Origin: an uncultured bacterium
Lineage (GTDB): Bacteria; Patescibacteriota; Minisyncoccia; Phycocordibacterales; Phycocordibacteraceae
Assembly (NCBI GenBank): GCA_947085985.1
Contig: CAMTYL010000004.1
Span: 61,547-125,546 of the forward strand
Direction of reading: 5' to 3'
DNA: 64,000 nucleotides
Under the pieces are notes generated by a model that did no database searches, was not told the DNA's origin, and worked only from the letters and a program-made list of their open reading frames with translations. Below are positions 13,068 to 57,940 of the stretch, one piece after another; the stretch's first letter is position 1, and each line of letters starts with the position of its first letter. The position numbers were made by a program, and so were the translations under genes.

Positions 13068-13200
13068 CAAGGCGCGAGTTCAGACTGGAGCGAGTCGTAC
13101 TAGAAGTACGGTGAGCGTGCCAGAATTTCTTGAGCGAAGCGATTAGAAATTCAAATACTCTTGGGGTGAACAGTTCGAGCGAGAAACGCTGTAGATGAGC
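13068..13200 (+). repeat. conserved intergenic element, copy A (CAAGGCGCGAG ... CGTACTAGAAGTACGGTGAGCGTG ... GAGCGAGAAACGCTGTAGATG)
   Basis: shares hairpin and GTGAGCGTG block with copy D and the ...CGC..AGATG end with all copies; carries an extra ~55-nt insert with a GAATTTCT/AGAAATTC inverted repeat. Confidence 0.6.
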
Positions 13201-13218
13201 CTTTTTGGACGTGCCCCC

Positions 13219-13830
13219 TTACTCCATTACGCCATCCAGATTCACATCGTACAGAATCTCATCCTGTACGTGTCGGTAGCTATAGAGATCAGACTCTGGG
13301 AACCACATAGCAAGCTCCTTGTTTGCGTTCTCTGGCTCGTCTGAGCAGTGAATAAGGTTTCGCACTGCGCGGTCGTCTACGGCGCAGATTGCGTACGAAT
13401 CAATGGTAAGGTCGCCACGAATAGTACCCACGTCGCTTGTAGCAGGCTCAGTCTCACCCACAATCTTCTTCACTACTGCTACCGCCTGATTACCTTCAAG
13501 CGCCATCATAACGACTGGACTTACGGTCATGTACTTCACGAGTGCGCGGATGATGTCCTTTCCGTACTCAATAGGCTCCTTGTCTACGGACATACCTGCA
13601 GCAGCACGGTCTTCAGCAATCTTTGTTCCCTTCTTTAGGAACCACGCATCGTCCTTATCGTAGTGCTTCCAAAGGAGATCCTCAGGAAGAACGGCCATTC
13701 GCATGCCGACAATCTTGAGACCAGTGTTCTCAAAGCGACGAGTAATTTCTCCAACGAGTCCGCGCTGTACGCCGTCCGGCTTCACAATCACGAATGTTCG
13801 CTCTTTCTTTGGGTGGGAAGGGTTTGCCAT
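13219..13830 (-). CDS. ndk: nucleoside diphosphate kinase, unusually long (203 aa)
   Basis: ERTFVIVKPDGVQRGLVGEI N-terminus; insertions compared with the ~140-aa canonical form. Confidence 0.8.
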   Translation of the reverse strand: MANPSHPKKERTFVIVKPDGVQRGLVGEITRRFENTGLKIVGMRMAVLPEDLLWKHYDKDDAWFLKKGTKIAEDRAAAGMSVDKEPIEYGKDIIRALVKYMTVSPVVMMALEGNQAVAVVKKIVGETEPATSDVGTIRGDLTIDSYAICAVDDRAVRNLIHCSDEPENANKELAMWFPESDLYSYRHVQDEILYDVNLDGVME

Positions 13831-13913
13831 ATTGTTTATTAAAAACCGCCTTACGGCGTTGATATATATGCACTATAACGCATACGTACGTATTCTGCCA
13901 CGCTGATCCACTA

Positions 13914-14483
13914 CTACGACTTGGCGAGTGCAGCCGAAACCGCCGGAATCTCTATCTGCTCAAATAACTCCATCTCCTGCGTAGAATCAATCCCGACGGC
14001 CTTGCCTGTGACGGTATACAGCGATACATGAGCAGGCTGCACCGGAACGTCAACGTTGAGAACACGGCGAACTGTTTCAAAATAGCCCCCGAGCCCCTGT
14101 ATTCGGCACCTTGCAGCAATGCTTGTTCGTTCTGCAGTTTTCGCGAGCCGCAGGTCGCCCACAAAACCTGAGAATGAAAGGGTGTGTGTGCGCACATACT
14201 CTGCTAGCAACCGCTTCAATTCCTCCTTGAGGAAATCCTCCTTTTTAACGTCTCCTTCAGCAAGAGTACGCGCTATTCCGCGTGCGTTTATTATCGTTAC
14301 GTGGAATTCGTCCTTTTTCTGAAACACCTGACCCCCTACTTCAAGAGATTCTGGCAGGTCAAGAAATTTGCCTGGGTCTAATACGAGCCACAGATATCCT
14401 TCGGGGTGAGCATAATACTCAGCTGGGAATTGAGCTTTTTTCAGTTCCACTGACTCTGCCTGTGGCATCTGCTCTTTTGTCAT
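13914..14483 (-). CDS. hypothetical protein
   Basis: 189-aa ORF in the operon position downstream of map; no motif recognised. Confidence 0.5.
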   Translation of the reverse strand: MTKEQMPQAESVELKKAQFPAEYYAHPEGYLWLVLDPGKFLDLPESLEVGGQVFQKKDEFHVTIINARGIARTLAEGDVKKEDFLKEELKRLLAEYVRTHTLSFSGFVGDLRLAKTAERTSIAARCRIQGLGGYFETVRRVLNVDVPVQPAHVSLYTVTGKAVGIDSTQEMELFEQIEIPAVSAALAKS

Positions 14484-14485
14484 AT

Positions 14486-15262
14486 CTATTCCCCAGGACG
14501 ACGAGTCACTACTATGGTTCCCTCATCCTCCACAAGAATCGTATGCTCAAAGTGCGCAGAGCGAGAACCGTCTCGTGTGCGATAGGTGTACCCGTCTGGC
14601 GCAATTACGACAGATGCCTTGCCGGCGTTTGCGATAGGCTCAAGTGCGAGCACCATGCCACTCACAATCTCTGGGCCCGTGCCTGGGTGGCCAGCGTTGG
14701 CGATAAACGGTTCCTCGTGCACGCGCTCCCCTACCGCGTGCCCGCCAAGCATCTTCACCACTGAAAAGCCTGTGCCGACGAATGCTTGCTCCGTGGAGTG
14801 GGAAATGTCGCCAATACGGTTCCCAGGTCGTGCAACCGCTATTGCGGCCTCCAGAGCTGCCTGAGTGGCGTTCATAAGCTCGTACGACTCCTTACCCACC
14901 TTCCCAACGGGCACCGTAATAGCAGTGTCTGTTATGAAACCCTTATGGGTAAGACCGATATCAAGCGCGACAATATCTCCCTCCTTGAGGATGCGTGGGT
15001 CCTCGTTTGGAATACCGTGCACCACCTCCTCGTTTACCGACACACACAGCGTGGCTGGGTACGGGCGCCCTCCCCCTTCTGGGGTATAGCCCTTAAACGC
15101 AGGCGTATCTCCTCCCTCAAGAATAAGGCGCTCAGCCTCTCTATCAAGCACATCTACGGAAACCCCAGGCGCTACAAGTGCGGCCACCTTTTCAAGCACG
15201 ATACCAAGTCGGCGACCCGACTCAATAATGCCTTCACGCTGCTCGTTCGTGCGAACTATCAT
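14486..15262 (-). CDS. map: type I methionine aminopeptidase
   Basis: pita-bread fold metal ligands (D..D..H..E..E). Confidence 0.9.
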   Translation of the reverse strand: MIVRTNEQREGIIESGRRLGIVLEKVAALVAPGVSVDVLDREAERLILEGGDTPAFKGYTPEGGGRPYPATLCVSVNEEVVHGIPNEDPRILKEGDIVALDIGLTHKGFITDTAITVPVGKVGKESYELMNATQAALEAAIAVARPGNRIGDISHSTEQAFVGTGFSVVKMLGGHAVGERVHEEPFIANAGHPGTGPEIVSGMVLALEPIANAGKASVVIAPDGYTYRTRDGSRSAHFEHTILVEDEGTIVVTRRPGE

Positions 15263-15831
15263 ACGAGATTAAGCGCCTTCTCTATATCCAAAGCTACTGC
15301 TTCGGGCGCCTGGTTCCCATTAATCTCAATTAATACCCCAAGATTTCTGAATAGGTCCAGTGCTTTTGTCGTATAGGTATTGTACTCTTCCATACGCTTC
15401 TCAACATAATGGTCGTCAGCTCTGCCAGATGTCTCTGCGCGACCCGCAAGACGCTTGGCCACTTCTTCTTCTGACACGTTAATCTCCAGAACTGAGAAGG
15501 GTCTCTCAAGCCACTTAAGCGAATCAATAATAAGCTGAGCCTCCTGCTCCTTGCGATTAAATCCGTCAAAAATGATGCTTTCGTCTGCAGATACGGAGAA
15601 AAGGCTGCGTAGATACACATACATAGCAAACCAATGAGGAGACAGAAGTCCCTTATCCATCTCTTCCTTTGTGCGACGACCCGCAGGAGTGTCTTCAGTG
15701 GCAATTTCTCTAAACTGATCACCCGAAGCAAGGACATGCCATCCCGTCTTTGCGGCAAGCATTTTTGCTTGAGTACCTTTTCCACAACCAGGTCGACCAA
15801 TAAAAAATACTGTTTTTGGGCTAGATTCCAT
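15259..15831 (-). CDS. adk: adenylate kinase
   Basis: P-loop GRPGCGKGTQA, NMP-binding and lid regions. Confidence 0.9.
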   Translation of the reverse strand: MESSPKTVFFIGRPGCGKGTQAKMLAAKTGWHVLASGDQFREIATEDTPAGRRTKEEMDKGLLSPHWFAMYVYLRSLFSVSADESIIFDGFNRKEQEAQLIIDSLKWLERPFSVLEINVSEEEVAKRLAGRAETSGRADDHYVEKRMEEYNTYTTKALDLFRNLGVLIEINGNQAPEAVALDIEKALNLV

Positions 15832-15902
15832 TTAAGAAAGATTATTACAAACGTACTGTATCACGAAGCGTACTTGTGTCAGCTCGGTTTGAAATGCGCC
15901 GA

Positions 15903-15986
15903 GATGCTAGGCGCGGGGAGATGAGAAGCGTAGACGTACTAGCAGTACGACGAAGCGACGAATCGGGACCCGCAACAACGCAGATT
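15903..15986 (+). repeat. conserved intergenic element, copy B (GATGCTAGGCGCGGGGAG ... CGTACTAGCAGTACGACGAAGCG ... GGGACCCGCAACAACGCAGATT)
   Basis: between the secY stop and adk start, written on the opposite strand to both. Confidence 0.7.
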
Positions 15987-16007
15987 GGCGTAGTTCGAAA
16001 CGAGCTT

Positions 16008-17276
16008 CTAATACTCGCGAAGAGATGCCTGCGCATCAACCTTGCGAATAAGATCAAGCACCACGGTGACCGCAATCAAGAGCGCCGTACCACCCACAAG
16101 AATCGCAGAGATTCCGGTAATACCCTGGATAATAAACGGAATGACTGCCACAAGACCCAAGAAGGTAGAACCAGGAAGCGTGATGCGACTCACCACCTTT
16201 GCAAGGTAATTCTCTGTCTCGCGACCCGGACGAACGCCAGGAATAAATGCGCCAGACTTCTGCAAGTTCTCGGCAACACGGTGTGGCTCAAAGGTGATAG
16301 AGGTGTAGAAGTAGGTGAACATCACAACAAGCGCAAAGTACGCGGCGCCGTACGCAAACGGATTAGCAGCAAACGCGTTGTAGCCGTTTAGTACCGCGTC
16401 CATACCCGCTACACCCACAGACGAGAGTGCCGTGATAATCATCTGCGGAAGCAGCAAGAGTGAAAGCGCGAAAATGATTGGAATAACACCGGCTTGAAGA
16501 AGACGAATCGGCAAGTATGACGGTCCGGTAGCACCCTGCCCGCGGCTCGTGCGTGCGTAGTTAATTGGAATTGAGCGTTCACCCTCTGACACCACGACTA
16601 CAAGGAAGGTGACAATGAGTGCAATCACTGCAAAGGCAACGTAGGCCGGGATATTTGCAGCCGAAGCCGAGAAGATGGCCTGACCAATACCTGCAGGAAG
16701 TGACGCCACGATACCCGCAAAGATGATGATTGAAACACCGTTTCCAACACCAAACTCAGTGATAAGCTCACCAATCCACATAAGGAGCATGGAACCAGCG
16801 GCTACAAGGAAGACGTTTAGTGCAAACGCAAACGGAGAGAGTGACGAAACAATGCCCTGGCTTTCAAGAAGCGAGAGGAATGCGATTGCCTGAAGAATGG
16901 CAAGCGGGATAGAAAGTACGCGTGAAATGGCGATGAAGCGAGTACGACCCGCCTCTCCCTCCTCCGAGTACATCGCCTTCACCTGCGGGAACACCACCGT
17001 TGCGAGCTGCATGATGATGCTTGCAGTGATGTAGGGACCAACACCGAGCATCACAAGGGAAAGGTAAGAGAAACCACCTCCCGAGAACACGGAAAGAAGA
17101 CCGAGGAACTGGTTGTTATTGAAAAACTGAGCGAGCGCAACCTCGTCAACGCCCGGAATTGGCACTGCAGCCAAAATACGGAACACGACAAGGGCAGCGA
17201 GAATAAAGAGGATGCGGTTGCGCAGCACCCGGTCGCCGAAGATAAGCCCTAGTTTGTGTGTAATCTGCTTAAGCAT
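16008..17276 (-). CDS. secY: preprotein translocase subunit SecY
   Basis: 10-TM SecY family. Confidence 0.95.
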   Translation of the reverse strand: MLKQITHKLGLIFGDRVLRNRILFILAALVVFRILAAVPIPGVDEVALAQFFNNNQFLGLLSVFSGGGFSYLSLVMLGVGPYITASIIMQLATVVFPQVKAMYSEEGEAGRTRFIAISRVLSIPLAILQAIAFLSLLESQGIVSSLSPFAFALNVFLVAAGSMLLMWIGELITEFGVGNGVSIIIFAGIVASLPAGIGQAIFSASAANIPAYVAFAVIALIVTFLVVVVSEGERSIPINYARTSRGQGATGPSYLPIRLLQAGVIPIIFALSLLLLPQMIITALSSVGVAGMDAVLNGYNAFAANPFAYGAAYFALVVMFTYFYTSITFEPHRVAENLQKSGAFIPGVRPGRETENYLAKVVSRITLPGSTFLGLVAVIPFIIQGITGISAILVGGTALLIAVTVVLDLIRKVDAQASLREY

Positions 17277-17724: not shown

Positions 17725-17735
17725 AGTAAAAGTGA

Positions 17736-18338: not shown

Positions 18339-18346
18339 AAAAATAA

Positions 18347-18697: not shown

Positions 18698-18706
18698 AGA
18701 TCAATC

Positions 18707-19252: not shown

Positions 19253-19262
19253 ACGTAACCAA

Positions 19263-20572: not shown

Positions 20573-20650
20573 AGGGCCTCCTTACTGAGCAGAGGTGCGG
20601 AATGCACCAATGAACTCCTCCTCTCTGGATACCACGAAATGCATAAAAGT

Positions 20651-20674
20651 AAAACCCCGGCACTGCCGGGGTTT
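20651..20674. terminator. bidirectional rho-independent terminator directly after rplE
   Basis: AAAA-CCCCGGC-act-GCCGGGG-TTTT. Confidence 0.65.
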
Positions 20675-20693
20675 TACTTGTAAGAAATGCTAC

Positions 20694-24462: not shown

Positions 24463-24915
24463 ATGACGATGGTTCCCGTTGTTGAATTGCGCGTCTGGAC
24501 GCGCTATCCGGGCCAGTTCAGAGGCCAGGTGCCTGTTAGAGACCGTGCCAGCTATATGCTGACGGACCCCACCGGTCACCTTTCTGCTCTTATCAAAAGG
24601 AGCGAAGAGCTGACCAAGCAATGCGCTAAAAACAGCTTGCGGACGGACTTTCTCCCCTCCTTGAGGGCGAAGTGGCTGGCCTGGGCATCAAAGCGACTCA
24701 TCAAGAGGCTTGCTTCGCGCACCAAAAGGGCGCTCAGCCAGCTAGTGGTCACAAGCAATAAGTCTGCCAGGGTACTGGAGAGCCATGAAAAGCACCGTGT
24801 TGTGCAAAGCATGGACAGGGCCGTGAGATTGGACTTTGTTGCTTACCAGGCTAAGGAGCCTTTTGACGGAGAAACCCTTCTCTTGGTGGCATACGCAAGT
24901 ACCGTCCTAAAATAA
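24463..24915 (+). CDS. hypothetical protein, opposite strand, inside the rplB-rpsS junction
   Basis: 150 aa, SD GGAGGT 8 nt upstream of the ATG, terminator downstream. Confidence 0.55.
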   Translation: MTMVPVVELRVWTRYPGQFRGQVPVRDRASYMLTDPTGHLSALIKRSEELTKQCAKNSLRTDFLPSLRAKWLAWASKRLIKRLASRTKRALSQLVVTSNKSARVLESHEKHRVVQSMDRAVRLDFVAYQAKEPFDGETLLLVAYASTVLK

Positions 24916-24924
24916 GCCCACCCC

Positions 24925-24960
24925 GGACCCTGCACCATGCAGGGTCCGCGCTTATTAAGG
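24925..24960 (+). terminator. rho-independent terminator
   Basis: GGACCCTGCA-ccat-TGCAGGGTCC then GCGCTTATT. Confidence 0.6.
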
Positions 24961-24982
24961 ATGGGGGAGTATACTTTCTTAT

Positions 24983-25795
24983 ATGACCGACCGCATAAAG
25001 TACTTCCTTCCCGCAGCAATCTTACTCGTAATTCTCTTGGGCGGTGTCGTTTGGTACATGATGAGCACTCCCGCTCCTACACCAAATTTTGGTACTGACA
25101 CACCAGCTGCCGCCACAGAACCCGTCACCGTCACGGATGAAGCCACCTACTACACCGTAAGGGCGCTGTACCCGAGTGAAACACCCCTTAAAGCTTCTGC
25201 AGGGGCACAGGCCGACCAGACAGCTGTTTCAGTCATGAAGACCTTCGTAGAGCAAGAAATTGCCCGGTTCAAAGACAACGGGAACTTTGCGAACCTATCG
25301 CACGACGATGTGCAGATGTTGGGGCTCGATCAGCGCAAGTATGAGCTGGATCTTGAGTACACTACACATGCTGGTAACGCGACACTCACCTATGTGTACC
25401 AAATGTACATGGATACGGGTGGAGCCCATCCAAATGTGTTTTACCGAACCTTTACTTTTGATGTAAAGACGGGAGCCCAGCTCAGCATGCACGACCTCTT
25501 TGCGGAAGATGCGCCTTACCTTGAGACTCTCTCTACCCTCTCGCGCAGCAAACTGCCTGCGTTTATGGCTGCGCGTAGCGGCGTAGCGGTAAGCGAAGTA
25601 GATACCGACTACATCGCGAGCGGCACCATGGCTGTGGAGGACGCGTTCCAAAACTTCTACTTCAAGGACGGAAACTTGGTACTCCTCTTCCCTCCCTACC
25701 AAATCGGCCCGTATGTTCTGGGCATGATTGAACTTCCTATTCCAGTGTCAGAACTTTCAGATCTACGCGTTGAGTACAAAAATAGTGCCCGTTAA
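24983..25795 (+). CDS. membrane-anchored DUF3298/DUF4163-domain protein (RsiV/PdaC-like fold)
   Basis: N-terminal TM helix; hallmark YQMYMDTGGAHPNVFYRTFTFD block. Confidence 0.65.
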   Translation: MTDRIKYFLPAAILLVILLGGVVWYMMSTPAPTPNFGTDTPAAATEPVTVTDEATYYTVRALYPSETPLKASAGAQADQTAVSVMKTFVEQEIARFKDNGNFANLSHDDVQMLGLDQRKYELDLEYTTHAGNATLTYVYQMYMDTGGAHPNVFYRTFTFDVKTGAQLSMHDLFAEDAPYLETLSTLSRSKLPAFMAARSGVAVSEVDTDYIASGTMAVEDAFQNFYFKDGNLVLLFPPYQIGPYVLGMIELPIPVSELSDLRVEYKNSAR

Positions 25796-25870
25796 CAGCT
25801 TACTCTTTACGTGCACTACTGCGCTTTATTTGCTAGGGTTACGGCAGGTGAACAGAAGGGGGAAACCCAA

Positions 25871-26089
25871 ATGTGTGAAGCTTGCGGCCCCAGTAGCGGG
25901 GTACCCGAACGAATAAGCCCGGAGCTTATGGAGCGGTTCCGAGAAATCGGCCGTCAGGAAGCTGCCCGTCGCGGCATCACAGAGGAGGAGTATCTGGATG
26001 CCAACGTCACGGTGAGCCCGCCAAACCGCCTTATGGCGTGGCTGCGGGAAGCCTGGACCAACATCCAGCTCTTGAAGCCGTGGCTCTAA
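25871..26089 (+). CDS. small hypothetical protein
   Basis: 72 aa from ATG 25871, with SD GGGGGA upstream. Confidence 0.4.
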   Translation: MCEACGPSSGVPERISPELMERFREIGRQEAARRGITEEEYLDANVTVSPPNRLMAWLREAWTNIQLLKPWL

Positions 26090-26102: not shown

Positions 26103-26174
26103 GGGCCCGTCGCGAGACGGGCCCTTCGTGTGCCTGGAGTATAAACAAAAAGCCGCTCGTTGGAGCGGCTTTTT
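26103..26174 (+). terminator. two consecutive hairpins; the second is a bidirectional A-tract/T-tract terminator
   Basis: GGGCCCGTC-gcgag-GACGGGCCC, then AAAAAGCCGCTC-gttg-GAGCGGCTTTTT. Confidence 0.6.
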
Positions 26175-26198
26175 GCTAGGGAGCAGAAAATTGCTGCA

Positions 26199-26283
26199 GA
26201 TGCTAGGCGCGAGGAGGAAATTTCTGGAGGCGTACTGGCAGTACGACGGAAGAAATTTCTGAACTCGCAACAACGCAGATGTA
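26199..26283 (+). repeat. conserved intergenic element, copy C (GATGCTAGGCGCGAGGAG ... CGTACTGGCAGTACGACGGAAG ... CTCGCAACAACGCAGATG)
   Basis: between the insertion terminator and the rplB stop. Confidence 0.7.
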
Positions 26284-26301
26284 GTAATTTTGTGCTCACT
26301 A

Positions 26302-27147
26302 CTACCCCTTCTTGCCGACTTTGCGACGAGAAACAATATGCTTGTTTGAGTACTTCTTCGGAGTACGAGTCTTCTGACCCTTGCCGGTTGGCTTACCCCA
26401 CATGCTCTTGGCACGGCGGAGTCCGCGTCCCTGCTTACCTTCTCCACCTCCGTGTGGGTGATCAACTGGGTTCATCGCAGTACCGCGAACAGTAGGACGG
26501 ATGCCGAGCCAGCGGCTGCGACCTGCCTTACCAAAGTTAGCTAGGCGCTGCTCCTCGTTGCCAACCGCACCGATAGATGCCCAGCAGAGCTCGTTGACCT
26601 TGCGTACTTCAGACGAAGGAAGCTTGATCTGCGCGTAGCCAGCGTCGTGAGCTACTACTTCAGCGTAGTTTCCGGCAGAGCGTACAAGACGTGCACCTGC
26701 TCCTGGCTGCAGCTCAATGTTGTAGATAAAGGTTCCGGAAGGAATCTTTCCAAGGGGAAGACGGTTTCCGGTCTTGATCGGTGCTGCCTCTCCTACAAGG
26801 AACGTGTCTCCAACCTTCATATCCTTTGGTGCAAGCACGTAGCGGCGCTCTCCATCAGCAAATACGGTGAGTGCGATGAATGCAGTTCGGTATGGATCGT
26901 ACTCAATTGTCTCAATACGTGCAGGAATGTTCTTCTTGTCGTACTTGAAATCAATATCACGAAGCAAGCGCTTGTGACCACCTCCCTGGTGACGCACGGT
27001 AATGCGTCCAGAGTTGTTGCGTCCACCCTGACGCTTCTTGTGTGAGGTAAGTGCCTTGTGTGGCTTCACACCCGGAGTGAGTACGCCACGGTACGTGACA
27101 ACACTCATCTGGCGGCGACTCTTGGATGTTGGTTTGTAAGTCTTCAT
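26302..27147 (-). CDS. rplB: 50S ribosomal protein L2
   Basis: L2 consensus. Confidence 0.95.
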   Translation of the reverse strand: MKTYKPTSKSRRQMSVVTYRGVLTPGVKPHKALTSHKKRQGGRNNSGRITVRHQGGGHKRLLRDIDFKYDKKNIPARIETIEYDPYRTAFIALTVFADGERRYVLAPKDMKVGDTFLVGEAAPIKTGNRLPLGKIPSGTFIYNIELQPGAGARLVRSAGNYAEVVAHDAGYAQIKLPSSEVRKVNELCWASIGAVGNEEQRLANFGKAGRSRWLGIRPTVRGTAMNPVDHPHGGGEGKQGRGLRRAKSMWGKPTGKGQKTRTPKKYSNKHIVSRRKVGKKG

Positions 27148-29522: not shown

Positions 29523-29585
29523 CTACTCTCCTTCTCTACCGATGAACAGAGGGGAGCATACCGCGCTTTGTGCGAAAGGAAAAGC

Positions 29586-29613
29586 AAAAACCGCCCCTTG
29601 CGGGGCGGTTTTT
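29586..29613. terminator. bidirectional terminator immediately after rpsJ
   Basis: AAAAA-CCGCCCC-ttgc-GGGGCGG-TTTTT. Confidence 0.65.
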
Positions 29614-29635
29614 GCTTTTGTTATCCGAGCGAATC

Positions 29636-35346: not shown

Positions 35347-35425
35347 TTCTGTCTCCATCCAATCTGTCCAGGCACGGGTGCCGGAACTCCGGTTGAAGCT
35401 TCAATCCAAGACCCTTAAAAGTCAA

Positions 35426-35453
35426 CAAAAAGCGCCCTCTCGGGCGCTTTTTT
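35426..35453. terminator. bidirectional terminator downstream of rpsG
   Basis: AAAAAGCGCCC-tctc-GGGCGCTTTTT. Confidence 0.65.
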
Positions 35454-35586
35454 ATTCTTACGGGGCGAGGAAAAATGCCTGTATACCAGGCGCAAGAAGT
35501 AGAGTTCTCGAAGTGTGCGCGACTGTACAGTGAGAGAAGTCTACGCATTTGCAACGCAGTAGACAGGTATTTTAACCGACCCGTCT

Positions 35587-36051
35587 CTACCAAGCGAAGT
35601 GAGCGAAGGCCTTGTTCGCATCCGCCATGCGGTGCATGTCGTCGCGCTTCTTGATAGCTGAACCTTCGTTCTTGGCAGCTAGGAGGATTTCCTCTGCAAG
35701 CTTGTCAGCCATAGGCTTTCCCTTCTTAGCGCGCGCCGCGTTGATGAGCCAACGGTATGCAAGAGATGTACGGCGCTGCTGTGGTACCTCGCGAGGAACC
35801 TGGTAGTTAGCACCTCCCACACGACGTGAGCGCACTTCCATAAGTGGAGCAACGTTTCTAATTGCCGTCTCAAACGTCTCAAGTGGGTCCAACTCAGCGG
35901 CCTTGATTTTATCAAGCGCGTCGTAGACCACCTTAGTTGCGGTGTCCTTCTTTCCGTCCCACATAACCGTGTTGATGAAGCGTGAAATAGCTTCTGAACC
36001 GTACACGAGGTCAGGACGACGAGGATACTTGTTTTTTACGGGATGACGCAT
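35587..36051 (-). CDS. rpsG: 30S ribosomal protein S7
   Basis: S7 consensus. Confidence 0.95.
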
Positions 36052-39721: not shown

Positions 39722-39760
39722 AACTACCCCGCACCCCTTGGGTGCGGGGTAGTTTTTGTA
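39722..39760. terminator. bidirectional terminator overlapping the comEC stop codon
   Basis: AACTACCCCGCACCC-cttg-GGTGCGGGGTAGTT then TTTTGTAT. Confidence 0.65.
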
Positions 39761-41223
39761 TAGCGATGCACGAGTAGGAATAGTGCGCCATACAAAAGCA
39801 CGACGATAAAAAATGGAAACTGCGCAATCGTGTGTGCGGCGAGCGGAAGCTCGGCACTTATCGTTGCAATTGAAATGATTACGGAGAGTACCACGTATGC
39901 GGGAAGCCCTGCGATTGGTGCTACGACAGGAAGCACGAGCCCCACGATTCCTGCAACGAACGATAGCAGCATCGCAAGCGGCACGAGTGGAAGCGCAAGT
40001 ATGTTTGCAGGAACTGATACGAGTGAGAGTGTGCCGGTTTGGTAGAGAAGAAGTGGAAGCACAAACGCCTGCGCGGAAATAGTTGTGGCACACACCTCAC
40101 GCAGCACGCTACTACGTATCCATGCTAGCCATCCTGAAACAATGGGTGCGCCCACAATGATGCCAAGTGTTGCGGCAAACGAAAATTGAAACCCGGGATC
40201 GTGAAGAAGCAGGTAGGGATTCCACGCAACCATCAGCACAAACACTACGAGCAAGATACGTAACGCGTCATACGTTCTACCTGTGGCACGAGCAAACAAA
40301 CCGACACACGCCATTGCTCCTGCACGGAACGCCGAAGCTCCGGCGCCGGCAGAAAGTACAAAGAGTACAATCGTAAGCGCGGCCGCACTTGTGGCAAGCA
40401 TCTTTGGCGCACGTCGCAACATGCGCATGACCGCCTCGGCGACAATCATGACGTTGTACCCGGACAAAACCACAATGGGGAGCAGTCCCGAGAGAGTGAA
40501 CGCAAGCAGTAACTCTTTCCCAAGACCTTGTTTGCCACCTACAAGCATTCCCATTGCAAGCGAGCTTGCCGGTTCGGGAATGGCTGCTGACACTCCTTCT
40601 GCAAATTCTTTGCGCACGATAAAGAGTGTGCGGAGTATCTGCATAGAGAGTGGCACTGATGCTCCCCCTATTTCTACGTCGGCTCTGGGCAGCATGAGTA
40701 CAATGCCGTCTTTGCGAAGATAGGCTGGGTAATCAAACACGCGCCCGCCAAGTGTTTCAAATGGTTCCGGGTAGGAGAGCTCGCCCGTGACACGCACCGA
40801 GTCTCCATAGAGCAGTACGGGGTGCAGTGGCACCACCGCAAGCACGCGCTCACGCGCACTTCCTCGCACTACCTCCACAACAACTCTCTGTGATGACTCA
40901 CGAATGTCGGGGTCTGCTACGATCACCCCGTCATACGTCCCCGCCGTGTGGATGTGTGCCACAAACACTTCCGGCACACGGTGCTCTGCGAGCGTCATGC
41001 GCGCACTGCCAAGCACTACGCTCAACAGAAACACTGCCGTGAGTGTGTACGCAAGAACTCTCCACAACACTCCAGCACCCACAAGTACAAGTGCCACAAG
41101 AACGATGAACGCCAGCACGTGCCACTCGTATATAAAAAGTGAGCGGCATGCAATGCCGCTCACTAGTCCGATTCCTCCTATCAAAAGACCCGGGCGCATC
41201 ATTGCTCCTAAGCGTATGTTCAA
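39724..41223 (-). CDS. comEC: ComEC/Rec2 competence channel protein (DUF4131 plus competence domain, no MBL domain)
   Basis: polytopic membrane protein with the ComEC core. Confidence 0.8.
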   Translation of the reverse strand: MNIRLGAMMRPGLLIGGIGLVSGIACRSLFIYEWHVLAFIVLVALVLVGAGVLWRVLAYTLTAVFLLSVVLGSARMTLAEHRVPEVFVAHIHTAGTYDGVIVADPDIRESSQRVVVEVVRGSARERVLAVVPLHPVLLYGDSVRVTGELSYPEPFETLGGRVFDYPAYLRKDGIVLMLPRADVEIGGASVPLSMQILRTLFIVRKEFAEGVSAAIPEPASSLAMGMLVGGKQGLGKELLLAFTLSGLLPIVVLSGYNVMIVAEAVMRMLRRAPKMLATSAAALTIVLFVLSAGAGASAFRAGAMACVGLFARATGRTYDALRILLVVFVLMVAWNPYLLLHDPGFQFSFAATLGIIVGAPIVSGWLAWIRSSVLREVCATTISAQAFVLPLLLYQTGTLSLVSVPANILALPLVPLAMLLSFVAGIVGLVLPVVAPIAGLPAYVVLSVIISIATISAELPLAAHTIAQFPFFIVVLLYGALFLLVHRYTKTTPHPRGAG

Positions 41224-41239
41224 AAATTTTCATATGCAA

Positions 41240-41316
41240 GGCACGAGCGAGGACGACGGCGAGCTGTACGAGTCTGTACAGCGAACCGTTCCCGCAGCAA
41301 GAAACGCAGCAGATGG
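41240..41316 (+). repeat. conserved intergenic element, copy F (GGCACGAGCGAGG ... CTGTACGAGTCTGTACAG ... CCCGCAGCAAGAAACGCAGCAGATGG)
   Basis: between the comEC start and rnhA stop; more diverged. Confidence 0.55.
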
Positions 41317-41335
41317 AAGTTTTGGGACGTGCGCC

Positions 41336-41752
41336 CTAGCGACCTCGGTCCATCGCTTCATTCGCTAATGCATCAGCCTCTGTGTTGTCCTCGCGATACA
41401 CGTGCGTAAACGTAAGTGCCTTAAAATTTCTTCCGACCTCTTTTACCTTTGCTGCCAGTGGCACAATATTTGGATGCTTGATTTTGTATTCCCCATTCAT
41501 CTGCCTCACCACCAGCTGACTATCAAGCCGTGCTTCTACTGACGCGCTAGCACTCGCTGCACCAAGCAGTGCGAATAGTCCTTCTAGTGCAGAGAGGAGT
41601 GCGGTGTACTCTGCGACGTTATTGGTTGTGACACCAAGATACTGCGAGACCGTCACCACCTGCACACCCTCCTCGTCGCGCACGAGTGCACCTGCCCCAG
41701 CAGGACCTGGGTTTCCACGAGAGCCTCCATCGGCGTACAAAACAAAATGCAT
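41336..41752 (-). CDS. rnhA: ribonuclease HI
   Basis: YADGGSRGNPGPAG and the DEDD catalytic residues. Confidence 0.85.
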   Translation of the reverse strand: MHFVLYADGGSRGNPGPAGAGALVRDEEGVQVVTVSQYLGVTTNNVAEYTALLSALEGLFALLGAASASASVEARLDSQLVVRQMNGEYKIKHPNIVPLAAKVKEVGRNFKALTFTHVYREDNTEADALANEAMDRGR

Positions 41753-50244: not shown

Positions 50245-51450
50245 CTAAATCTTGTCCGAAAGAGAGTAAATCGGCGTGATCATTGAAACAGCAAAGACTC
50301 CCACGAACACGCCGATAAAGAGCATCAAAAGCGGCTCAATAATGGTGGAGAGGTCTTTCGTTCTGTCCTCCACATCAGTCTCGTAGTACTCTGCCACCTG
50401 TCCCAACATGTCAGACACCTTTCCTGTTTCCTCGCCCACCAAAATCATGTCGGTAAAAAATGCTGGGTAGAGCTTTGGATACTTATTAAATGTTGCGGAG
50501 AGCGCTTCTCCTTTGCGCACACTCTCCTCCGCTTCAACAAGCACCGCACCAAACACATTCTTCCCTACCACCTCCCCGGCAATGCTGATAGCAGTAAGCA
50601 TTTCAACTCCAGAGGAGAGGAGTGAGGAAAGTGAACGTGCAGCACGAGCACCCATGGTCTCGCGCACCAAGTCTCCAATGACGGGGATACGCAAAGCAGC
50701 CTGCAAAATAAGTGCGCTTCCGACACGTGAGTGGGTGAAGGCATACACAGCACCAAAGAACCCCGCAAGGAGGAGGAGCGAAACGATTATGTTGTTTGCC
50801 AGGAAGTCAGAGACCCCAATAATAATCTTTGTCGCCGTAGGAAGCTCAACACCAAGCGACTCAAACGTGGCAGAAAGTGTTGGCACCACAAACATAAGCA
50901 TCAGCACGCCAATCACCACAATGGCAGAGAGAATAATGCTTGGGTAAATCATGGCCCCCTTTACTTTCTTTTGCAGCGTAAAGGAGCGGTCCATTTGCTT
51001 GGCAATAGACTTGAGAGACTCGGCAAGAGTTCCCGATTCTTCGCCTGCCTTTGCCATTGCGATGAACAACTCGGGAAACACTTTCCGATGCATCATCAGT
51101 GCTTCGTGGAACGACCCGCCTGTTTTGATTTTCTCTTCAATGCTTGCGACTACCGCTTTCAAGTATTTGTTCTTTGACTGACGCTCAATAACGGACAGTG
51201 CGCGCGAAAGTGTGAGTCCTGCGGAAAGCATGGCTCCGAGGTTCTTGGTAAACGTAATCTTCTCCTCGGTTTTAATACCGGTACCAAACACAATGCCACC
51301 CGTTTTTTTTGGGTCCTTTGCTTCAGCAACATCAAGTACCGTCACACCCTCTGCTTCTAGTTGCGAATACACCGAGAAACGATTCTCCGCATCTATCATT
51401 CGCTTCTCTTTTGCACCGTCTTTTGTTTGAACGGATACGCGAAATTTCAT
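50245..51450 (-). CDS. pilC: type IV pilus assembly platform protein PilC (GspF family)
   Basis: two T2SSF repeats, 3 TM. Confidence 0.85.
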   Translation of the reverse strand: MKFRVSVQTKDGAKEKRMIDAENRFSVYSQLEAEGVTVLDVAEAKDPKKTGGIVFGTGIKTEEKITFTKNLGAMLSAGLTLSRALSVIERQSKNKYLKAVVASIEEKIKTGGSFHEALMMHRKVFPELFIAMAKAGEESGTLAESLKSIAKQMDRSFTLQKKVKGAMIYPSIILSAIVVIGVLMLMFVVPTLSATFESLGVELPTATKIIIGVSDFLANNIIVSLLLLAGFFGAVYAFTHSRVGSALILQAALRIPVIGDLVRETMGARAARSLSSLLSSGVEMLTAISIAGEVVGKNVFGAVLVEAEESVRKGEALSATFNKYPKLYPAFFTDMILVGEETGKVSDMLGQVAEYYETDVEDRTKDLSTIIEPLLMLFIGVFVGVFAVSMITPIYSLSDKI

Positions 51451-51521
51451 TACTGCTATCGTAGCATGCAAAAAGTTTTGGGCCGGACTTTCTCATGGAG
51501 AGTCCGGCCCGAAGTTGGTGG

Positions 51522-51854
51522 CTAGTGCCATACGTGCGTTCGCACAAAGTCCACCGAAGCGGCGATCGCGGAGGCAATAGCGATGCCGAGCGCAACCGTT
51601 GCCACCCATTCAAGCGCGACTGGCAGCTGTGGCACGAATGCAAGACTCACGCTAGGAACGCCGAGTGCGAGGCTCCACATACAGAGCCCGTCGCGCGAGG
51701 GTCTCGCAAAAACGAGCAGGATTCCTGCAGAGAGTCCGCAGGCGCCCACATACAGCGGGTCAAACCCGAGCACGGCGCCTAAAAGAGCGCCGCTGACGCC
51801 GGCGAAAGCACCCACACAAAGAGCAATATCTCCTTCAATTACAAATTTAGTCAT
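51522..51854 (-). CDS. small hydrophobic membrane protein between pilB and pilC
   Basis: ~110 aa, 3-4 TM; palindromic hairpin downstream. Confidence 0.4.
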   Translation of the reverse strand: MTKFVIEGDIALCVGAFAGVSGALLGAVLGFDPLYVGACGLSAGILLVFARPSRDGLCMWSLALGVPSVSLAFVPQLPVALEWVATVALGIAIASAIAASVDFVRTHVWH

Positions 51855-51946
51855 TGAATAGCCCTCCACCACAGTCAAACAGGTAGTCCGTTTGATACTA
51901 CGGCTCTGTAGTAGATATACACCCGAGCGAGTGAAGGTACCAGCGA

Positions 51947-53698
51947 CTACTCGGTGACTGCACGAAGCACTTCTTCAAGACTAGTGATGCCTCGCGCCGC
52001 TTTGTATATACCGTCGTCAAGCATGGTGAGCATTCCTTCTTTGCGCGCCTGCGCCTCAATCGCGTCAGGAGACGCATTGTGAAGTATCAAATCACGAATG
52101 GTAGGAGACACGGTCATAATTTCGTGAATACCGATACGGCTCTTGTATCCATCTTCGCACTCCGTAGACGGTTGCGGGTGGTAGAACGGCAGCTCGGTAA
52201 GCTTTGTCCCCGCCTTTACTAACTTTTCCTCGGTGAGTGAATTAAGCGCAGCCATGAAGTGGTCCTCGCTCGCCACTTTTTCGCGCTCTGCTTTATCAGG
52301 AATGTATTCCTCCTTGCTGTCGCAAAGTCTGCGCACCAAGCGCTGCCCCACTACCAAGCGAAGCGTGGAGACAAGGAGGAACGGCTCCACACCCATATCA
52401 ATGAGACGCGGAATAGCGCCTGCTGCCGAGTTGGTGTGAATGGTAGAGAGCACAACGTGTCCGGTGAGCGCGGCGTTAATAGCAAGCGAAGCGGTCTCGC
52501 TGTCACGAATCTCTCCCACCATGATGATGTTTGGGTCCTGGCGAAGGAGCGAGCGCAGTCCCTGCGCAAACGTAAACCCAATAGCAGGGTTCACCTGCGT
52601 TTGATTCACGCGCTTCATCTGGTATTCAATCGGGTCTTCTACTGTGGAAATGTTTACGTCGGGCGTATTTAAAATATCCAGAATGGTGTAGAGCGTGGTG
52701 GTTTTTCCGGAACCAGTAGGGCCCGACACGAGGATGATGCCCGTCGTCTGCTTCATTGCCTTGTGAATGCGCTCCATCGTCTCCCCGTGGAAGCCGAGCG
52801 TTTCAAGAGAGAAGCCCTCCCCCGTCTCGCGAAGCAAGCGCATCACGATTTTTTCTCCGTAGTAGGTTGGCAGCATGGACACACGGAAGGACACTTTGTC
52901 GCCATCACTCTCCATTTTGAATCGGCCGTCCTGCGGCAAACGTTTCTCGTCCAGCTTGAGTGAGGACAACACCTTAATACGCGCAATGATTCCCGGCCCC
53001 GCGTCTTTGGGCAGAGTCATCGCGTCGTGGAGCATGCCGTCAATGCGATAGCGCACAAGTACTTGGTCCTCTAACTGTTCAATATGAATGTCGGAGGCTG
53101 CCTGAATAATGGCGTGACGAAGGAGCGTGTCCACAATACGTACAATCGGCAAATCTTCCGCCATTTTTTTGAGGTCGTCGCCCGACACTTCGTTCCCGTC
53201 ACTGTCCTTAATGAGGTTGATGCGCCCCGACTCGGTTGCAATCAAGTCACCAAACTCTTCTTTGAGAGACTTCTGATACTGAAGCAATGTGTGCTTCAGC
53301 GAGTCGTCGTCGGTAAGACGCGCCAAAATAGTAAGCCCCGTAGTTTTTCGCACGGAATCAATTGCAGGCAGGTCCTCCGTATCAAGCATCGCTACCTCAA
53401 GCTCCTTGTCTCCTTTACGAAACGCCACAATGCTGTGCGTGCGTGCGATTGGCTCTGGAATAAGTGAAAGCACTTCAAGAGGAATCTTTCTGTCCTTCAA
53501 GTTTATAAACGGAATGCCGAGCACGTACGCTTTAATGCGACGGAGTGCATCAGTTGAAAGCTGGCCGCTTGATACTAAAATATCTCCGATTGATTGCTTT
53601 CGCTCCTTTGCCTCCTTGTCTGCAGCTTCAACGTCCTTCCGGGAAACGAGTCCGGAATCAAGAATAAATTCTTTTAGTTCGCTTTCAGATACTTGCAT
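51947..53698 (-). CDS. pilB: type IV pilus assembly ATPase PilB (GspE family)
   Basis: Walker A GPTGSGKTT, Asp box, His box, N-terminal GSPII domains. Confidence 0.9.
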   Translation of the reverse strand: MQVSESELKEFILDSGLVSRKDVEAADKEAKERKQSIGDILVSSGQLSTDALRRIKAYVLGIPFINLKDRKIPLEVLSLIPEPIARTHSIVAFRKGDKELEVAMLDTEDLPAIDSVRKTTGLTILARLTDDDSLKHTLLQYQKSLKEEFGDLIATESGRINLIKDSDGNEVSGDDLKKMAEDLPIVRIVDTLLRHAIIQAASDIHIEQLEDQVLVRYRIDGMLHDAMTLPKDAGPGIIARIKVLSSLKLDEKRLPQDGRFKMESDGDKVSFRVSMLPTYYGEKIVMRLLRETGEGFSLETLGFHGETMERIHKAMKQTTGIILVSGPTGSGKTTTLYTILDILNTPDVNISTVEDPIEYQMKRVNQTQVNPAIGFTFAQGLRSLLRQDPNIIMVGEIRDSETASLAINAALTGHVVLSTIHTNSAAGAIPRLIDMGVEPFLLVSTLRLVVGQRLVRRLCDSKEEYIPDKAEREKVASEDHFMAALNSLTEEKLVKAGTKLTELPFYHPQPSTECEDGYKSRIGIHEIMTVSPTIRDLILHNASPDAIEAQARKEGMLTMLDDGIYKAARGITSLEEVLRAVTE

Positions 53699-53838
53699 GT
53701 AAAAAGTTCGTATTAAAAGTATAGCGCGCACACGCTTCGCGTTCGCGCGTTTATATTTTTGCTACGGGGAAAAGAAGAACGCCCGCACATTGCTGTGCGG
53801 GCGCTTTCGTCTCCATGGTGTGTTGAAAGGTTGTGCGA

Positions 53839-54396: not shown

Positions 54397-54662
54397 GTTC
54401 AGATTCCCCTTTCAAGGGTGTATGGAGACGGTCAAAGAGCAGTGCGCCCTTGATCCAGTCTCCAGCTAATGGAAATGGAGGGCCAAAACAAAAGCCCAAA
54501 CGCATATATATATTACACCACTATGACCCAATAGTCAAGCTGGGCATATTGACTGAATCTACCTATATATGGTATGTTTTACCTATCTGAGATGTCCGGG
54601 AACCCGGGCATTTCTTGTTAAGAATGCAGTGTTTGCATGAACCTGAGGTAAAATTGCCAAAT

Positions 54663-54745
54663 GCGAGGCGTGGGCAGGCCAGCGAGTGAGGCGTACTGAA
54701 TAGTACGATGAACGAGCTGGACGGGGGCCCGCAACGAAGCAGGTG
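54663..54745 (+). repeat. conserved intergenic element, copy E (GCGAGGCGTGGGCAGG ... CGTACTGAATAGTACGATGAACGAGC ... GGGGGCCCGCAACGAAGCAGGTG)
   Basis: terminal GTG 54743 opens the nusA ORF in frame. Confidence 0.65.
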
Positions 54746-54808
54746 GTGATTTTAGACAGGTTCCCTGGGCGACAATTACATACAGGTACTACAACTAAAT
54801 ACAGGCTT

Positions 54809-56200: not shown

Positions 56201-56215
56201 TTCCAATCTAATTGT

Positions 56216-56737
56216 ATGAACTTGCTACACGATGTAGTGTCCGGCACCGCCGAGGAGATGAATGTCATTATTGAGATTCCAAAAGGTTCTAAGAACAAGT
56301 ACGAGATTGATAAGGAGACAGGGCTTATTGCGCTTGATCGCGTGATGCACTCTGCTCAGGACTACCCGTTTGATTACGGATTTGTGCCACAGACCCTGTG
56401 GGACGATGGCGACGCACTGGACGTGGTACTGCTTACCACCTATCCACTGATGCCAGGCATCCTCGTGCGTGCTCGCCCGGTTGCTATTCTTCCTATGGTT
56501 GATGGTGGCGAGTCTGATGCAAAGATTCTAGCGGTTCCCTGCGACGACCCTCGTTTCAAGGAGATTGCTGACCTTGCCGACGTGAACAAGCACACGCTCA
56601 AGGAAATCACGCACTTCTTCTTGACCTACAAGACGATTCAGGACAAGGAAGTGACGCTTGGTGAGTGGGGTGGCAAGGCGGATGCTGAAGCTGCGTTTAC
56701 TCGCTCTCGCGAGATGTACGACGCAAAGAAGGACTAG
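56216..56737 (+). CDS. ppa: inorganic pyrophosphatase
   Basis: family I PPase motifs (DGDALDVVL, KIL). Confidence 0.9.
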   Translation: MNLLHDVVSGTAEEMNVIIEIPKGSKNKYEIDKETGLIALDRVMHSAQDYPFDYGFVPQTLWDDGDALDVVLLTTYPLMPGILVRARPVAILPMVDGGESDAKILAVPCDDPRFKEIADLADVNKHTLKEITHFFLTYKTIQDKEVTLGEWGGKADAEAAFTRSREMYDAKKD

Positions 56738-56753
56738 GAATTTGGACGTGTTC

Positions 56754-56784
56754 AAAAGGCCACAGCATTCTGTTGTGGCCTTTT
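56754..56784 (+). terminator. rho-independent terminator
   Basis: AAAA-GGCCACA-gcattctgt-TGTGGCC-TTTT. Confidence 0.6.
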
Positions 56785-56821
56785 GTCGTGCCCAGCACGA
56801 GAGGGGTATACTGATATAACT

Positions 56822-57019
56822 ATGGAACCAGCAAATACCCCAATCCCACAGAAAGCGCCCGGCGCATACGGCAGCCTATTCTCTATCATCATGATTGTCG
56901 TCATCCTCGTGGTGGGCGCCTTCTACGTATGGAACAAGCGTGTGGCACAGAATTACCAGTACGCAACGCCAGAACAAGAGACGGTGCAAGTAGAGGCTGC
57001 GGTGTCAGCTCAAGAGTAG
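56822..57019 (+). CDS. possible 65-aa single-TM protein
   Basis: ORF with weak SD. Confidence 0.35.
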   Translation: MEPANTPIPQKAPGAYGSLFSIIMIVVILVVGAFYVWNKRVAQNYQYATPEQETVQVEAAVSAQE

Positions 57020-57077
57020 CCCACATTCGTCTCTGTCTGTTTTTCTGGTACTATTCCCCCACTAACCCACTATATAT

Positions 57078-57683
57078 ATGAGTAAAGAAACCCCACGCGC
57101 TTCAATGCTTGTCCCGATGGTGATTGAGAAGTCACAGTTTGGCGAGCGTGCATACGACATCTACTCACGCCTCCTTCGTGAGCGCATTGTGTTCCTCTCT
57201 GGTGGTGTGGACGACGACGTGGCAAACCTCGTCGTGGCACAGCTCCTTTTCCTTGAAGCAGAGGACCCAAAGAAAGACATCTTCCTCTACATCAACTCTC
57301 CGGGAGGTTCTGTCTCTGCAGGTCTTGCGATTGTGGACACCATGAATCACATCAAGCCGTCTGTTGCGACGGTTGTGGTTGGTATGGCGGCTTCTATGGG
57401 TTCAGTGATTCTAGCCTCTGGTGCCAAGGGTAAGCGCTTCGCACTTCCAAACGCTGAGGTGATGATTCACCAGCCGTGGGGCGGAGTGCAGGGACAGGCA
57501 GCCGATATTGAGATCACGGCGCGTCACATCCTCGCTACCCGCGACCGCTTGAACAAGCTTCTCGCAAAAGCATCTGGTCAGACACTGGCTAAGGTTGAGA
57601 AGGACGTGGACCGCGACTTCTTTATGACCGCAGACGAGGCCAAGAAGTACGGCCTGATTGATACCGTCTACAAGACTAAGTAG
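57078..57683 (+). CDS. clpP: ATP-dependent Clp protease proteolytic subunit
   Basis: catalytic Ser in GMAASMG, His in MIHQP; TATATAT immediately precedes the ATG (possibly leaderless). Confidence 0.95.
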
Positions 57684-57695
57684 TGCACGCAGGAT

Positions 57696-57734
57696 GAACG
57701 AGAAACGGCGCCCTCCGGGCGCCGTTTCTCGTTC
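57696..57734 (+). terminator. 18-bp perfect-stem terminator after clpP
   Basis: GAACGAGAAACGGCGCCC-tcc-GGGCGCCGTTTCTCGTTC. Confidence 0.65.
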
Positions 57735-57855
57735 ATTTGCGCCCCCACCGCGCTGTGGCACACTGACTACAGCGGTTGTGTTCCTGAAGTACTGAGTATG
57801 GCTGATTATCTGAATCGATTTTATTTGCTCTAAATGCGCGTTCAGAAAGGCGGCA

Positions 57856-57940
57856 GTTGCTAGGCGCGGGAAGGTCGGCTCGCGAGCCGTACATAGAAGT
57901 ACGGTGAGCGTGACGACCGGGACCCGCAACAACGCAGATG
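57856..57940 (+). repeat. conserved intergenic element, copy D (GTTGCTAGGCGCGGGAAGG ... CGTACATAGAAGTACGGTGAGCGTGACGACCGGGACCCGCAACAACGCAGATG)
   Basis: terminal ATG 57938 opens an 8-codon uORF whose TGA stop lies 1 nt before the rny ATG. Confidence 0.7.

Follow-up and report, generated by a model that had tools for sequence, protein, structure and literature searches.

We describe an intergenic element that is present in seven copies, all on the + strand, in a 64,000-nt stretch of the genome of an uncultured bacterium of the Patescibacteriota (Phycocordibacteraceae; assembly GCA_947085985.1, contig CAMTYL010000004.1, positions 61,547 to 125,546; hereafter the window, in which all coordinates without a locus number are given). 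One strand of the element, referred to as the written strand, folds into a long rod-like hairpin, the structure is selected on that strand specifically, and the strand is in most copies antisense to the gene whose end it abuts. Covariance-model searches beyond the window showed that the family is both genome-wide and phylum-wide, and the element is apparently previously undescribed. We tentatively read it as a REP/REPIN-like (repetitive extragenic palindrome) interspersed element that acts as single-stranded DNA; its function is unproven.

The window was searched, with filters off, with a covariance model (R1) built from four window copies and 20 relatives, and with a second-generation model (R2). 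R1 matched six copies (B, C, F, E, H and D) with E values of 1e-15 to 1e-30 for the 64-kb window. The seven copies, with fold z-scores computed against dinucleotide shuffles, are listed below.

13045..13215, + strand: copy A, degenerate and branched; hairpin base 3 nt from the ndk stop codon.
15881..16006, + strand: copy B (R1 match 15878-16010); 109.5 bits, E 3e-30; fold z -4.1.
26177..26301, + strand: copy C (R1 match 26174-26305); 109 bits; fold z -6.4.
35460..35584, + strand: copy H (R1 match 35457-35588); R1 60.6 bits, R2 74.5 bits.
41211..41335, + strand: copy D (R1 match 41208-41339); R1 60.2 bits, R2 75.2 bits; fold z -4.3.
54638..54764, + strand: copy E (R1 match 54635-54768); 91.7 bits; fold z -5.7.
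57834..57959, + strand: copy F (R1 match 57831-57963); 105 bits; fold z -6.4.

Copies B to F form a rod-like hairpin over a unit of ~125-130 nt (z -4.1 to -6.4), and the + strand has a folding advantage of 11-19 kcal/mol over its reverse complement in every copy. Copy D has a diverged core. Copy A is a real element but a degenerate one: it carries an extra branch of ~60 nt, its long hairpin has a folding energy of -57.5 kcal/mol against -38.9 kcal/mol for the reverse complement, R1 matches only its tip hairpin, and the region as a whole is recovered by R2 alone, with 18.5 bits over 13039-13165. A preliminary description of this DNA had proposed at least six same-orientation copies of a conserved ~85-nt unit composed of four sequence blocks. 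The count and the common orientation hold, and blocks 1, 2 and 4 were found in their proposed places far above chance (5, 3 and 5 pattern matches versus 0.85, 0.11 and 0.17 expected). The unit itself, however, had been drawn too short, the 85-nt core being flanked by an outer stem of about 22 bp, and block 3 (GTGAGCGTGACGACCGGGA) is not a conserved block; it forms, in copy F, the 3' strand of the inner stem, which is variable. The site suggested as a probable seventh copy, 61146-61195, matched neither R1 nor R2 even in unfiltered searches at E<=10, and its fold z is -0.95; the true additional copy is H.

The outermost helix of the rod, P1 (~22 bp), consists of 10 variable base pairs, an A-tract in the 5' arm facing a T/U-tract in the 3' arm, and ~7 GC-rich base pairs. 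Inside P1 lies a 2x2 tandem G-A loop with GA on both strands, each strand reading CAGAUG, followed by a 3-bp helix, P2 (UGC/GCA), and by a near-invariant asymmetric core loop, n-A/G/G-C on the 5' strand and A-A/C/R-A-M on the 3' strand. P3 (GCGGG/CCCGC) then leads to a second, purine-rich G-A junction, and P4, a variable stem of 8-11 bp, leads to a third GA/GA motif. The tip helix, P5, is nCGUAC/GUACGn (CGTAC-N4-7-GTACG) in Patescibacteria and closes on a terminal loop of 4-7 nt whose sequence is free. Outside Patescibacteria P5 co-varies, for example as GCGCAUC/GAUGCGU or CAAUAU/AUAUUG, and compensatory changes in this tip stem, which the preliminary description had singled out, are therefore present. 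Two positions of the core loop also co-vary in a non-Watson-Crick manner: n=U goes with M=C in 35/35 cases and n=G with M=A in 35/40, a pattern that a non-canonical pair or two old subfamilies may explain. A kink-turn is possible at the P3/P4 junction in some copies, but the bulge there varies from 1 to 3 nt.

Two variant forms were observed outside the window, where loci carry L numbers. The shorter betaproteobacterial variant, from Casimicrobiaceae and relatives (L005, L006, L042, L066 and L097), has the same 5' and 3' core blocks around a differently arranged interior, GGCGCG ... CAGTAC-N-GTACGG ... CGAGCGCC, and its score with the covariance model is weak or nil. Copies from Dormiibacterota (L096, L103, L111, L117, L049 and L022) continue pairing well past P1 to form hairpins of roughly 200 nt, with outer arms that are common to different metagenome-assembled genomes (MAGs).

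Covariation was evaluated in a 99-sequence alignment fitted to the model, and the controls were partners slid by 1-3 columns and 500 shuffles. Standard pairs occupied 86.4% of cells compared with 32-43% in the slid controls, double changes were present in 45 of the 49 pairs, and double-change cells numbered 1425 against 468 in the shuffles, none of the 500 reaching the observed values. In a MAFFT alignment, which is independent of the model, P1, P2, P3 and P5 were recovered and both sides had changed in 23/31 pairs. These results demonstrate selection on secondary structure, as had been proposed from a loop that varies while its stem is kept; that observation understated the case, since covariation extends to five helices and there are, besides, three conserved tandem G-A motifs.

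The pairs that deviate from Watson-Crick geometry identify the strand. G-U and U-G pairs together numbered 306 in the 99 sequences, whereas A-C and C-A mismatches numbered 95 (188 vs 45 in P1 and 68 vs 4 in P5), indicating that the written strand is the structured one; among the remaining mismatches, purine-purine combinations were far more frequent than pyrimidine-pyrimidine ones. In addition, folding energies calculated without any alignment were lower for the written strand in 95/99 copies with RNA parameters (mean difference -10.9 kcal/mol), and with DNA parameters the written strand folded better in 97/99. Cytosine deamination acts on the exposed coding or lagging-template strand, according to established mutation spectra, and would be expected to produce the opposite asymmetry. 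Mutational bias was therefore rejected as the cause of the G-U excess, and the asymmetry was taken as selection. The structure is selected on the written strand specifically.

In the window, copies A, B, C, H and D adjoin a gene on the - strand, with the hairpin base 0-3 nt from its stop codon: the base touches the stop codon of rplB at copy C and that of rnhA at copy D, and lies 1 nt from that of secY at copy B and 2 nt from that of rpsG at copy H. Copy B is located between secY and adk and is antisense to the operon. The genes concerned, named by Pfam, are as follows.

13219-13830, - strand: ndk.
15259-15831, - strand: adk.
16008-17276, - strand: secY.
26302-27147, - strand: rplB.
35587-36051, - strand: rpsG.
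41336-41752, - strand: rnhA.

Copies E and F, on the other hand, are transcribed in the element sense. Copy E precedes nusA, with ~45 nt between it and the likely start (ATG at about 54809), and copy F lies between clpP (57078-57683) and rny, the likely start codon of which (ATG at 57967) is ~8 nt past the hairpin; these genes were likewise named by Pfam. The assignments of A, B and C to ndk, secY and rplB and of E to nusA in the preliminary description were correct, but D follows rnhA and F precedes rny, not the reverse. The likely rny ATG has no recognisable Shine-Dalgarno sequence, and L047 and L037 keep the same layout, a hint that RNase Y synthesis is controlled in a structure-dependent way. 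At copy C, + strand genes (a DUF3298 protein and small open reading frames, ORFs; 24463-26089) lie directly downstream of rplB, where rpsS would normally come, so that an S10-type operon appears to be interrupted at this site. Elsewhere in the window, 39724-41223 and 50245-53731 encode ComEC and the type IV pilus proteins PilB and PilC, consistent with natural competence of the lineage, and 61312-62916 on the - strand is a 534-aa ORF without a Pfam match.

Neighbours of about 99 copies were then classified with a crude ORF caller. Both neighbours were on the opposite strand in 49/99 copies and both on the same strand in 14; an opposite-strand upstream neighbour was combined with a same-strand downstream one in 13, and the converse was seen in 11. 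In the dominant class, the 3' neighbour has its stop codon at the helix base, typically at -3 to -7 nt relative to the model end. When compared with the local gene majority in 8-kb loci, 53 copies were opposite and 13 the same. Overall, the structured strand is antisense to the abutting gene in about 75-80% of copies. In many operon-internal copies, only 2-30 nt separate the 5' arm from the start codon of the next gene. P1 takes in the final 4-5 codons of an orthologous gene in L041 and L061, with matching changes in the far arm. In L027, where two copies ~160 nt apart lie among opposite-strand tRNA genes (6184-6605), one copy is placed between two such genes and directly adjoins the CCA end of a tRNA gene. 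It is therefore transcript ends, rather than stop codons in themselves, with which the element is associated. No protein family recurs beside the element, the largest cluster among 488 neighbouring ORFs covering 7 of about 100 loci and having housekeeping members.

Canonical terminators were detected 0-48 nt on the 5' side of copies A, C, H and D, as listed here.

13009..13026, strand not assigned: terminator-like hairpin on the 5' side of copy A, detected on both strands in a terminator scan.
26150..26178, strand not assigned: bidirectional terminator directly on the 5' side of copy C, with partial terminator-type Rfam matches.
35418..35446, strand not assigned: bidirectional terminator 13 nt from the 5' side of copy H, AAAAAGCGCCC-TCTC-GGGCGCTTTTTT.
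41134-41167: gene-sense terminator beyond copy D in the direction of rnhA transcription, from the terminator scan.

Read in the sense of the gene, the order at these four copies is stop codon, element as its reverse complement, and terminator. The same order was found in L144, L150, L033, L040, L094 and L109, in the last four of which the terminator is 6-14 nt 5' of the element. By a strict count, a perfect terminator stands on the 5' side in 7/98 copies; a lenient scan was too noisy and was not used. No conserved promoter motif was visible upstream of the copies, and an adjacent terminator or gene start leaves no room for a promoter of their own at such copies. Antisense copies of this kind would thus be transcribable only as the weaker reverse complement. 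In most copies a terminator or the start codon of a neighbour is located 0-48 nt upstream, which is not the arrangement of an independent small RNA gene; together with the four terminators in the window and the copies 2-30 nt from the next start, this disfavours the small RNA family suggested in the preliminary description. The window also contains about 20 plain bidirectional terminator hairpins (A-tract, GC stem, T-tract) beside the seven ornate ones; examples are at 9014-9067, 20637-20688, 29572-29626, 57690-57741 and 62831-62887, and the model aligns them as P1 minus the interior.

A pattern scan of one genome per species returned at least 117 stretches, and among the matches listed, R1 confirmed 86 stretches plus 13 regions at E<=1e-3. 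The remaining stretches are chance pattern matches in GC-rich genomes, and every named isolate among the matches listed falls into this group. Among the same matches, the verified copies came from MAGs of Patescibacteria (Saccharibacteria, Kaiser-, Taylor-, Lloyd-, Wolfe- and Harrisonbacteria, and Paceibacterota) and from MAGs labelled Dormiibacterota, Planctomycetia, Omnitrophota, Nitrospirota, Syntrophales and other Deltaproteobacteria, Binatia, Thermoanaerobaculia, Verrucomicrobia, Spirochaetes, Bdellovibrionota, genera of Burkholderiales, Gammaproteobacteria and Clostridia, phylum assignments being the labels that the MAGs carry. The window is Saccharibacteria-like, and its flanks are 82-84% identical to MAGs CAZNVT01 and CAYITJ01. 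A scan of a viral collection produced a single match, probably by chance, and BLAST against plasmids produced none. The element is non-coding and has no Rfam match, as had been proposed: with Rfam 15, the whole window gave only tRNA-Gly at the gathering threshold, copy F gave no match at E<=10, and copy C gave at E<=10 only terminator-type partial matches to the neighbouring hairpin. The tRNA-Gly(UCC) gene, at 63060-63133 on the - strand, is the sole Rfam or ARAGORN match of the window. Literature and sequence-string searches found no description of the element, and Weinberg 2017 has no such motif.

Sites of the element have been both gained or lost and retained over long periods. Among relatives, 80 secY loci were surveyed. 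The element occupied the position immediately following secY in about 10-12 of them, always antisense and once as a tandem pair, and the closest relatives had none at this position. In L119, a plain bidirectional terminator takes its place. The tandem pair, in L163 (3238-3504, - strand), comprises one conserved copy (64-74 bits) and one diverged copy (36-41 bits). Filled and empty sites at about 80% flank identity were also found for copy A of the window versus L001, and for L141, L144 and L150 versus L143, L145, L146 and L159. No target-site duplication or direct repeat was evident at the filled/empty junctions compared. The empty ndk site of L001 keeps only a sequence resembling the 5' arm, and loss is therefore as likely as gain. 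Old orthologous sites, some of them persisting across genera and all with compensatory changes, include B and L001; F, L047 and L037 upstream of rny; L003 and L090 at the pilB-pilC junction, where the copies are in sense orientation; and L018 and L100. On the other hand, recent copies occur at different loci, with variable-column identities of 87% for L030/L086, 76% for a pair in L071 and 74% for L003/L055, while most copies that share a genome resemble one another no more than random pairs do. The 22-bp outer stem AGCAGTCTGCTSAAAAAG is common to L030 and L086 (Planctomycetia MAG) and to L012 (Omnitrophota MAG), and this suggests either that a full-length unit was transferred horizontally or that the binning was in error. 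Insertion into the loops of terminators looked attractive as an origin because P1 resembles terminators and the secY site of L119 has a plain one, but it was rejected as a general rule, since an intact terminator is present beyond the element in L144, L150, A, H and D.

Comparison with known systems places the element close to several of them. Like REP, BIME and REPIN sequences, it is an interspersed, extragenic imperfect palindrome found after stop codons and between operon genes, it forms a single-strand hairpin with G-T wobbles, it shows long vertical persistence and occasional duplication, and it would be non-autonomous; its hairpin is strand-specifically imperfect and extragenic at gene 3' ends. 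The run fdx-element-iscX-element-ndk-element in the proteobacterial MAG L073 is a REP-like distribution. REPINs are hairpins of about 100 nt (PMC3337134, PMC3116915). However, REP families are lineage-specific and near-identical within a genome, whereas the core of the element crosses phyla and its stems differ within one genome: mean variable-column identity is 0.41 within and 0.35 between genomes, and few pairs reach 74% or more. A REPIN consists of two inverted REPs with a variable spacer, while the element has an asymmetric internal loop and its arms are not inverted copies of a motif. It has no GTAG-type foot, and no RAYT gene recurred among the clustered neighbouring ORFs. With miniature inverted-repeat transposable elements (MITEs) such as ERIC/IRU, Correia and RUP, the element shares the form of an intergenic imperfect palindrome of ~100-150 nt that is co-transcribed in either orientation. 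MITEs have conserved terminal inverted repeats and target-site duplications; the termini of the element, by contrast, are its most variable part, the outermost 10 bp differing even between L003 and L055, and direct repeats are lacking at the filled/empty junctions. The whole outer stem shared by L030, L086 and L012 is an exception to this variability. Of the roles envisaged in the preliminary description, a MITE-like module and a strand-polar motif come closest, in view of the filled and empty sites, the recent duplicates and the orientation of about 80% antisense, although MITE termini and duplications are absent; a module of the 5' untranslated region suits the minority class of E, F and their orthologues and does not suit the remainder. 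Bidirectional intrinsic terminators, finally, resemble P1 in having an A-tract, a GC-rich stem and a T-tract and in occupying the same sites in relatives. They differ from the element, which carries a conserved structured core of ~85 nt in place of a loop and continues pairing for 10 bp past the T-tract, and which is often followed by a separate canonical terminator. A conserved T-tract does follow the inner part of P1, but many copies are operon-internal. Because membership of REP/REPIN, MITE and attC (see below) failed in each case, the element was tentatively filed as a variant of the general kind of interspersed sequence, structured on a single strand, to which REP/REPIN and attC belong.

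Several other explanations were weighed. The element could function as a structured RNA in the element sense, namely as an antisense RNA, as a terminator that blocks antisense transcription at gene 3' ends, or as a leader for rny, nusA and others. The G-U wobbles, the three tandem G-A motifs and the purine-rich loops are typical of functional RNA; core positions n and M co-vary in a non-Watson-Crick manner, a U-tract follows the hairpin in the element sense in the model consensus, three genomes retain a copy upstream of rny whose hairpin ends 8-10 nt before the start codon, and a stability gap of ~11 kcal/mol would give a terminator that is strong in one direction and leaky in the other. Nevertheless, we consider such a role somewhat unlikely: a canonical terminator stands immediately 5' of the element at A, C, H, D, L033, L040, L094 and L109, operon-internal copies lack promoter space and a conserved upstream promoter motif, and a simple terminator would not need a core that is conserved across phyla. 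Alternatively, the element could work in the gene sense, as the reverse complement within the mRNA. It could protect 3' ends, act as a leaky intercistronic terminator or couple translation, both the preceding stop codon and the next start codon being held at the base of one helix, with the core as a relic of its origin. The base of the hairpin 0-3 nt from the stop codon, the inclusion of the last 4-5 codons with a co-varying far arm in L041 and L061, and the frequent start of the next gene 2-30 nt past the far arm agree with this, as do the plain terminators at the same sites in relatives, the likeness of P1 to the plain bidirectional terminators of the window, to which the model fits P1 alone, deleting the interior, and the A-5'/T-3' orientation of the tracts in 62-70% of copies at two positions. 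Yet pairing is optimised on the other strand, so that the gene sense contains A-C and pyrimidine-pyrimidine mismatches, about 20-25% of copies are oriented oppositely with respect to transcription, and the conserved core loops are left without a role. This explanation is unlikely.

A third possibility is a recombination site like integron attC, in which a tyrosine recombinase would act on the folded antisense strand and shuffle the gene before it. As in attC, which functions as folded single-stranded DNA, the element is an imperfect palindrome that comes directly after a stop codon, its structured strand is antisense to the ORF (at A, B, C, H and D in the window), conserved bases are unpaired, the distal, terminal structure is variable and the length is in the attC range; in addition, runs of ORF-element-ORF-element occur in L073, L041, L071 and L032, and the neighbours include a small cluster of XerC/D-like genes. 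Membership of the integron attC sites themselves was rejected, because the R''/R' consensus RYYYAAC ... GTTRRRY is absent: the consensus ends of the element are CAGATGC ... GCAGATG, and the AAC triplets are unpaired on the 3' strand without a GTT partner. The element also differs from attC in lacking L boxes, an adjacent integrase and cassette-type genes, and in possessing the extra outer stem of ~22 bp. The genes that it flanks are housekeeping genes in conserved order (secY-adk, rplB, rpsG, fdx-iscX-ndk), and only 4 recombinase genes were present among about 100 loci. An attC-like role is thus very improbable.

We therefore return to a REP/REPIN-like interspersed element acting as single-stranded DNA, which we favour, though only tentatively. 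Single-stranded DNA is most likely the form seen by selection, since a core-dependent RNA function is hard to reconcile with the 75:25 orientation split and with the promoter problem. The element would be a non-autonomous, imperfectly palindromic repeat, one strand of which folds into a rod. An enzyme encoded in trans would recognise the folded strand, in the manner of Y1/HUH transposases with REP sequences or of the integron integrase with the bottom strand of attC, and the absence of a linked protein family among the neighbouring ORFs fits a partner encoded elsewhere. The host may tolerate the element because a self-folding rod placed after the stop codon, usually upstream of the real terminator, would leave expression undisturbed, and the outer stem would keep the stop codon before it adjacent to the start codon after it.

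A number of observations weigh against this interpretation. No transposase or recombinase was identified as a partner in the 8-kb loci and the 64-kb window, a search that was not genome-wide. There is neither a target-site duplication nor a fixed terminus, as the outermost 10 bp of the near-identical L003 and L055 illustrate. In Patescibacteria, copies within a genome are about as diverged as copies from different genomes (mean identity 0.41 vs 0.35), and this divergence, together with the compensatory changes at orthologous sites, resembles the outcome of long-term purifying selection for a host function more than that of active transposition. REP families are lineage-specific, whereas the core crosses phyla. 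The structured strand appears to be on the template of leading-strand synthesis, the strand that is exposed least in single-stranded form. In L055 and L079, a single run of same-strand genes contains copies in both orientations, and replication polarity alone therefore does not set the orientation. Furthermore, an RNA-level role is plausible at E, F and the rny orthologues, where the element is transcribed in its own sense and the rny start is 8 nt away. Given the long-term conservation of the structure, the phylum-wide core and the sense copies at rny and nusA, a genuine host function is conceivable.

Genomes of Patescibacteria are strongly streamlined, at about 1 Mb. The seven copies occupy about 1.4% of the window sequence, and their density extrapolates to roughly 100 copies per genome. 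The covariance model can be used for annotating uncultured genomes, in which the element marks the ends of transcription units, and gene callers and terminator predictors should be applied with caution where it occurs. A core shared across phyla with hundreds of compensatory changes implies a specific, so far unnamed molecular partner, the identity of which would reveal either a new mechanism of mobile DNA based on a folded single strand or a new regulatory RNA of gene ends. It is possible, if doubtful, that the element is a phylum-spanning structured single-stranded nucleic acid that is read by a dedicated trans-acting partner and marks gene ends strand-specifically. If so, it would represent, in Patescibacteria and numerous further uncultured lineages, a gene-end or genome-architecture system comparable in scope to REP/RAYT or attC and unrelated to either.

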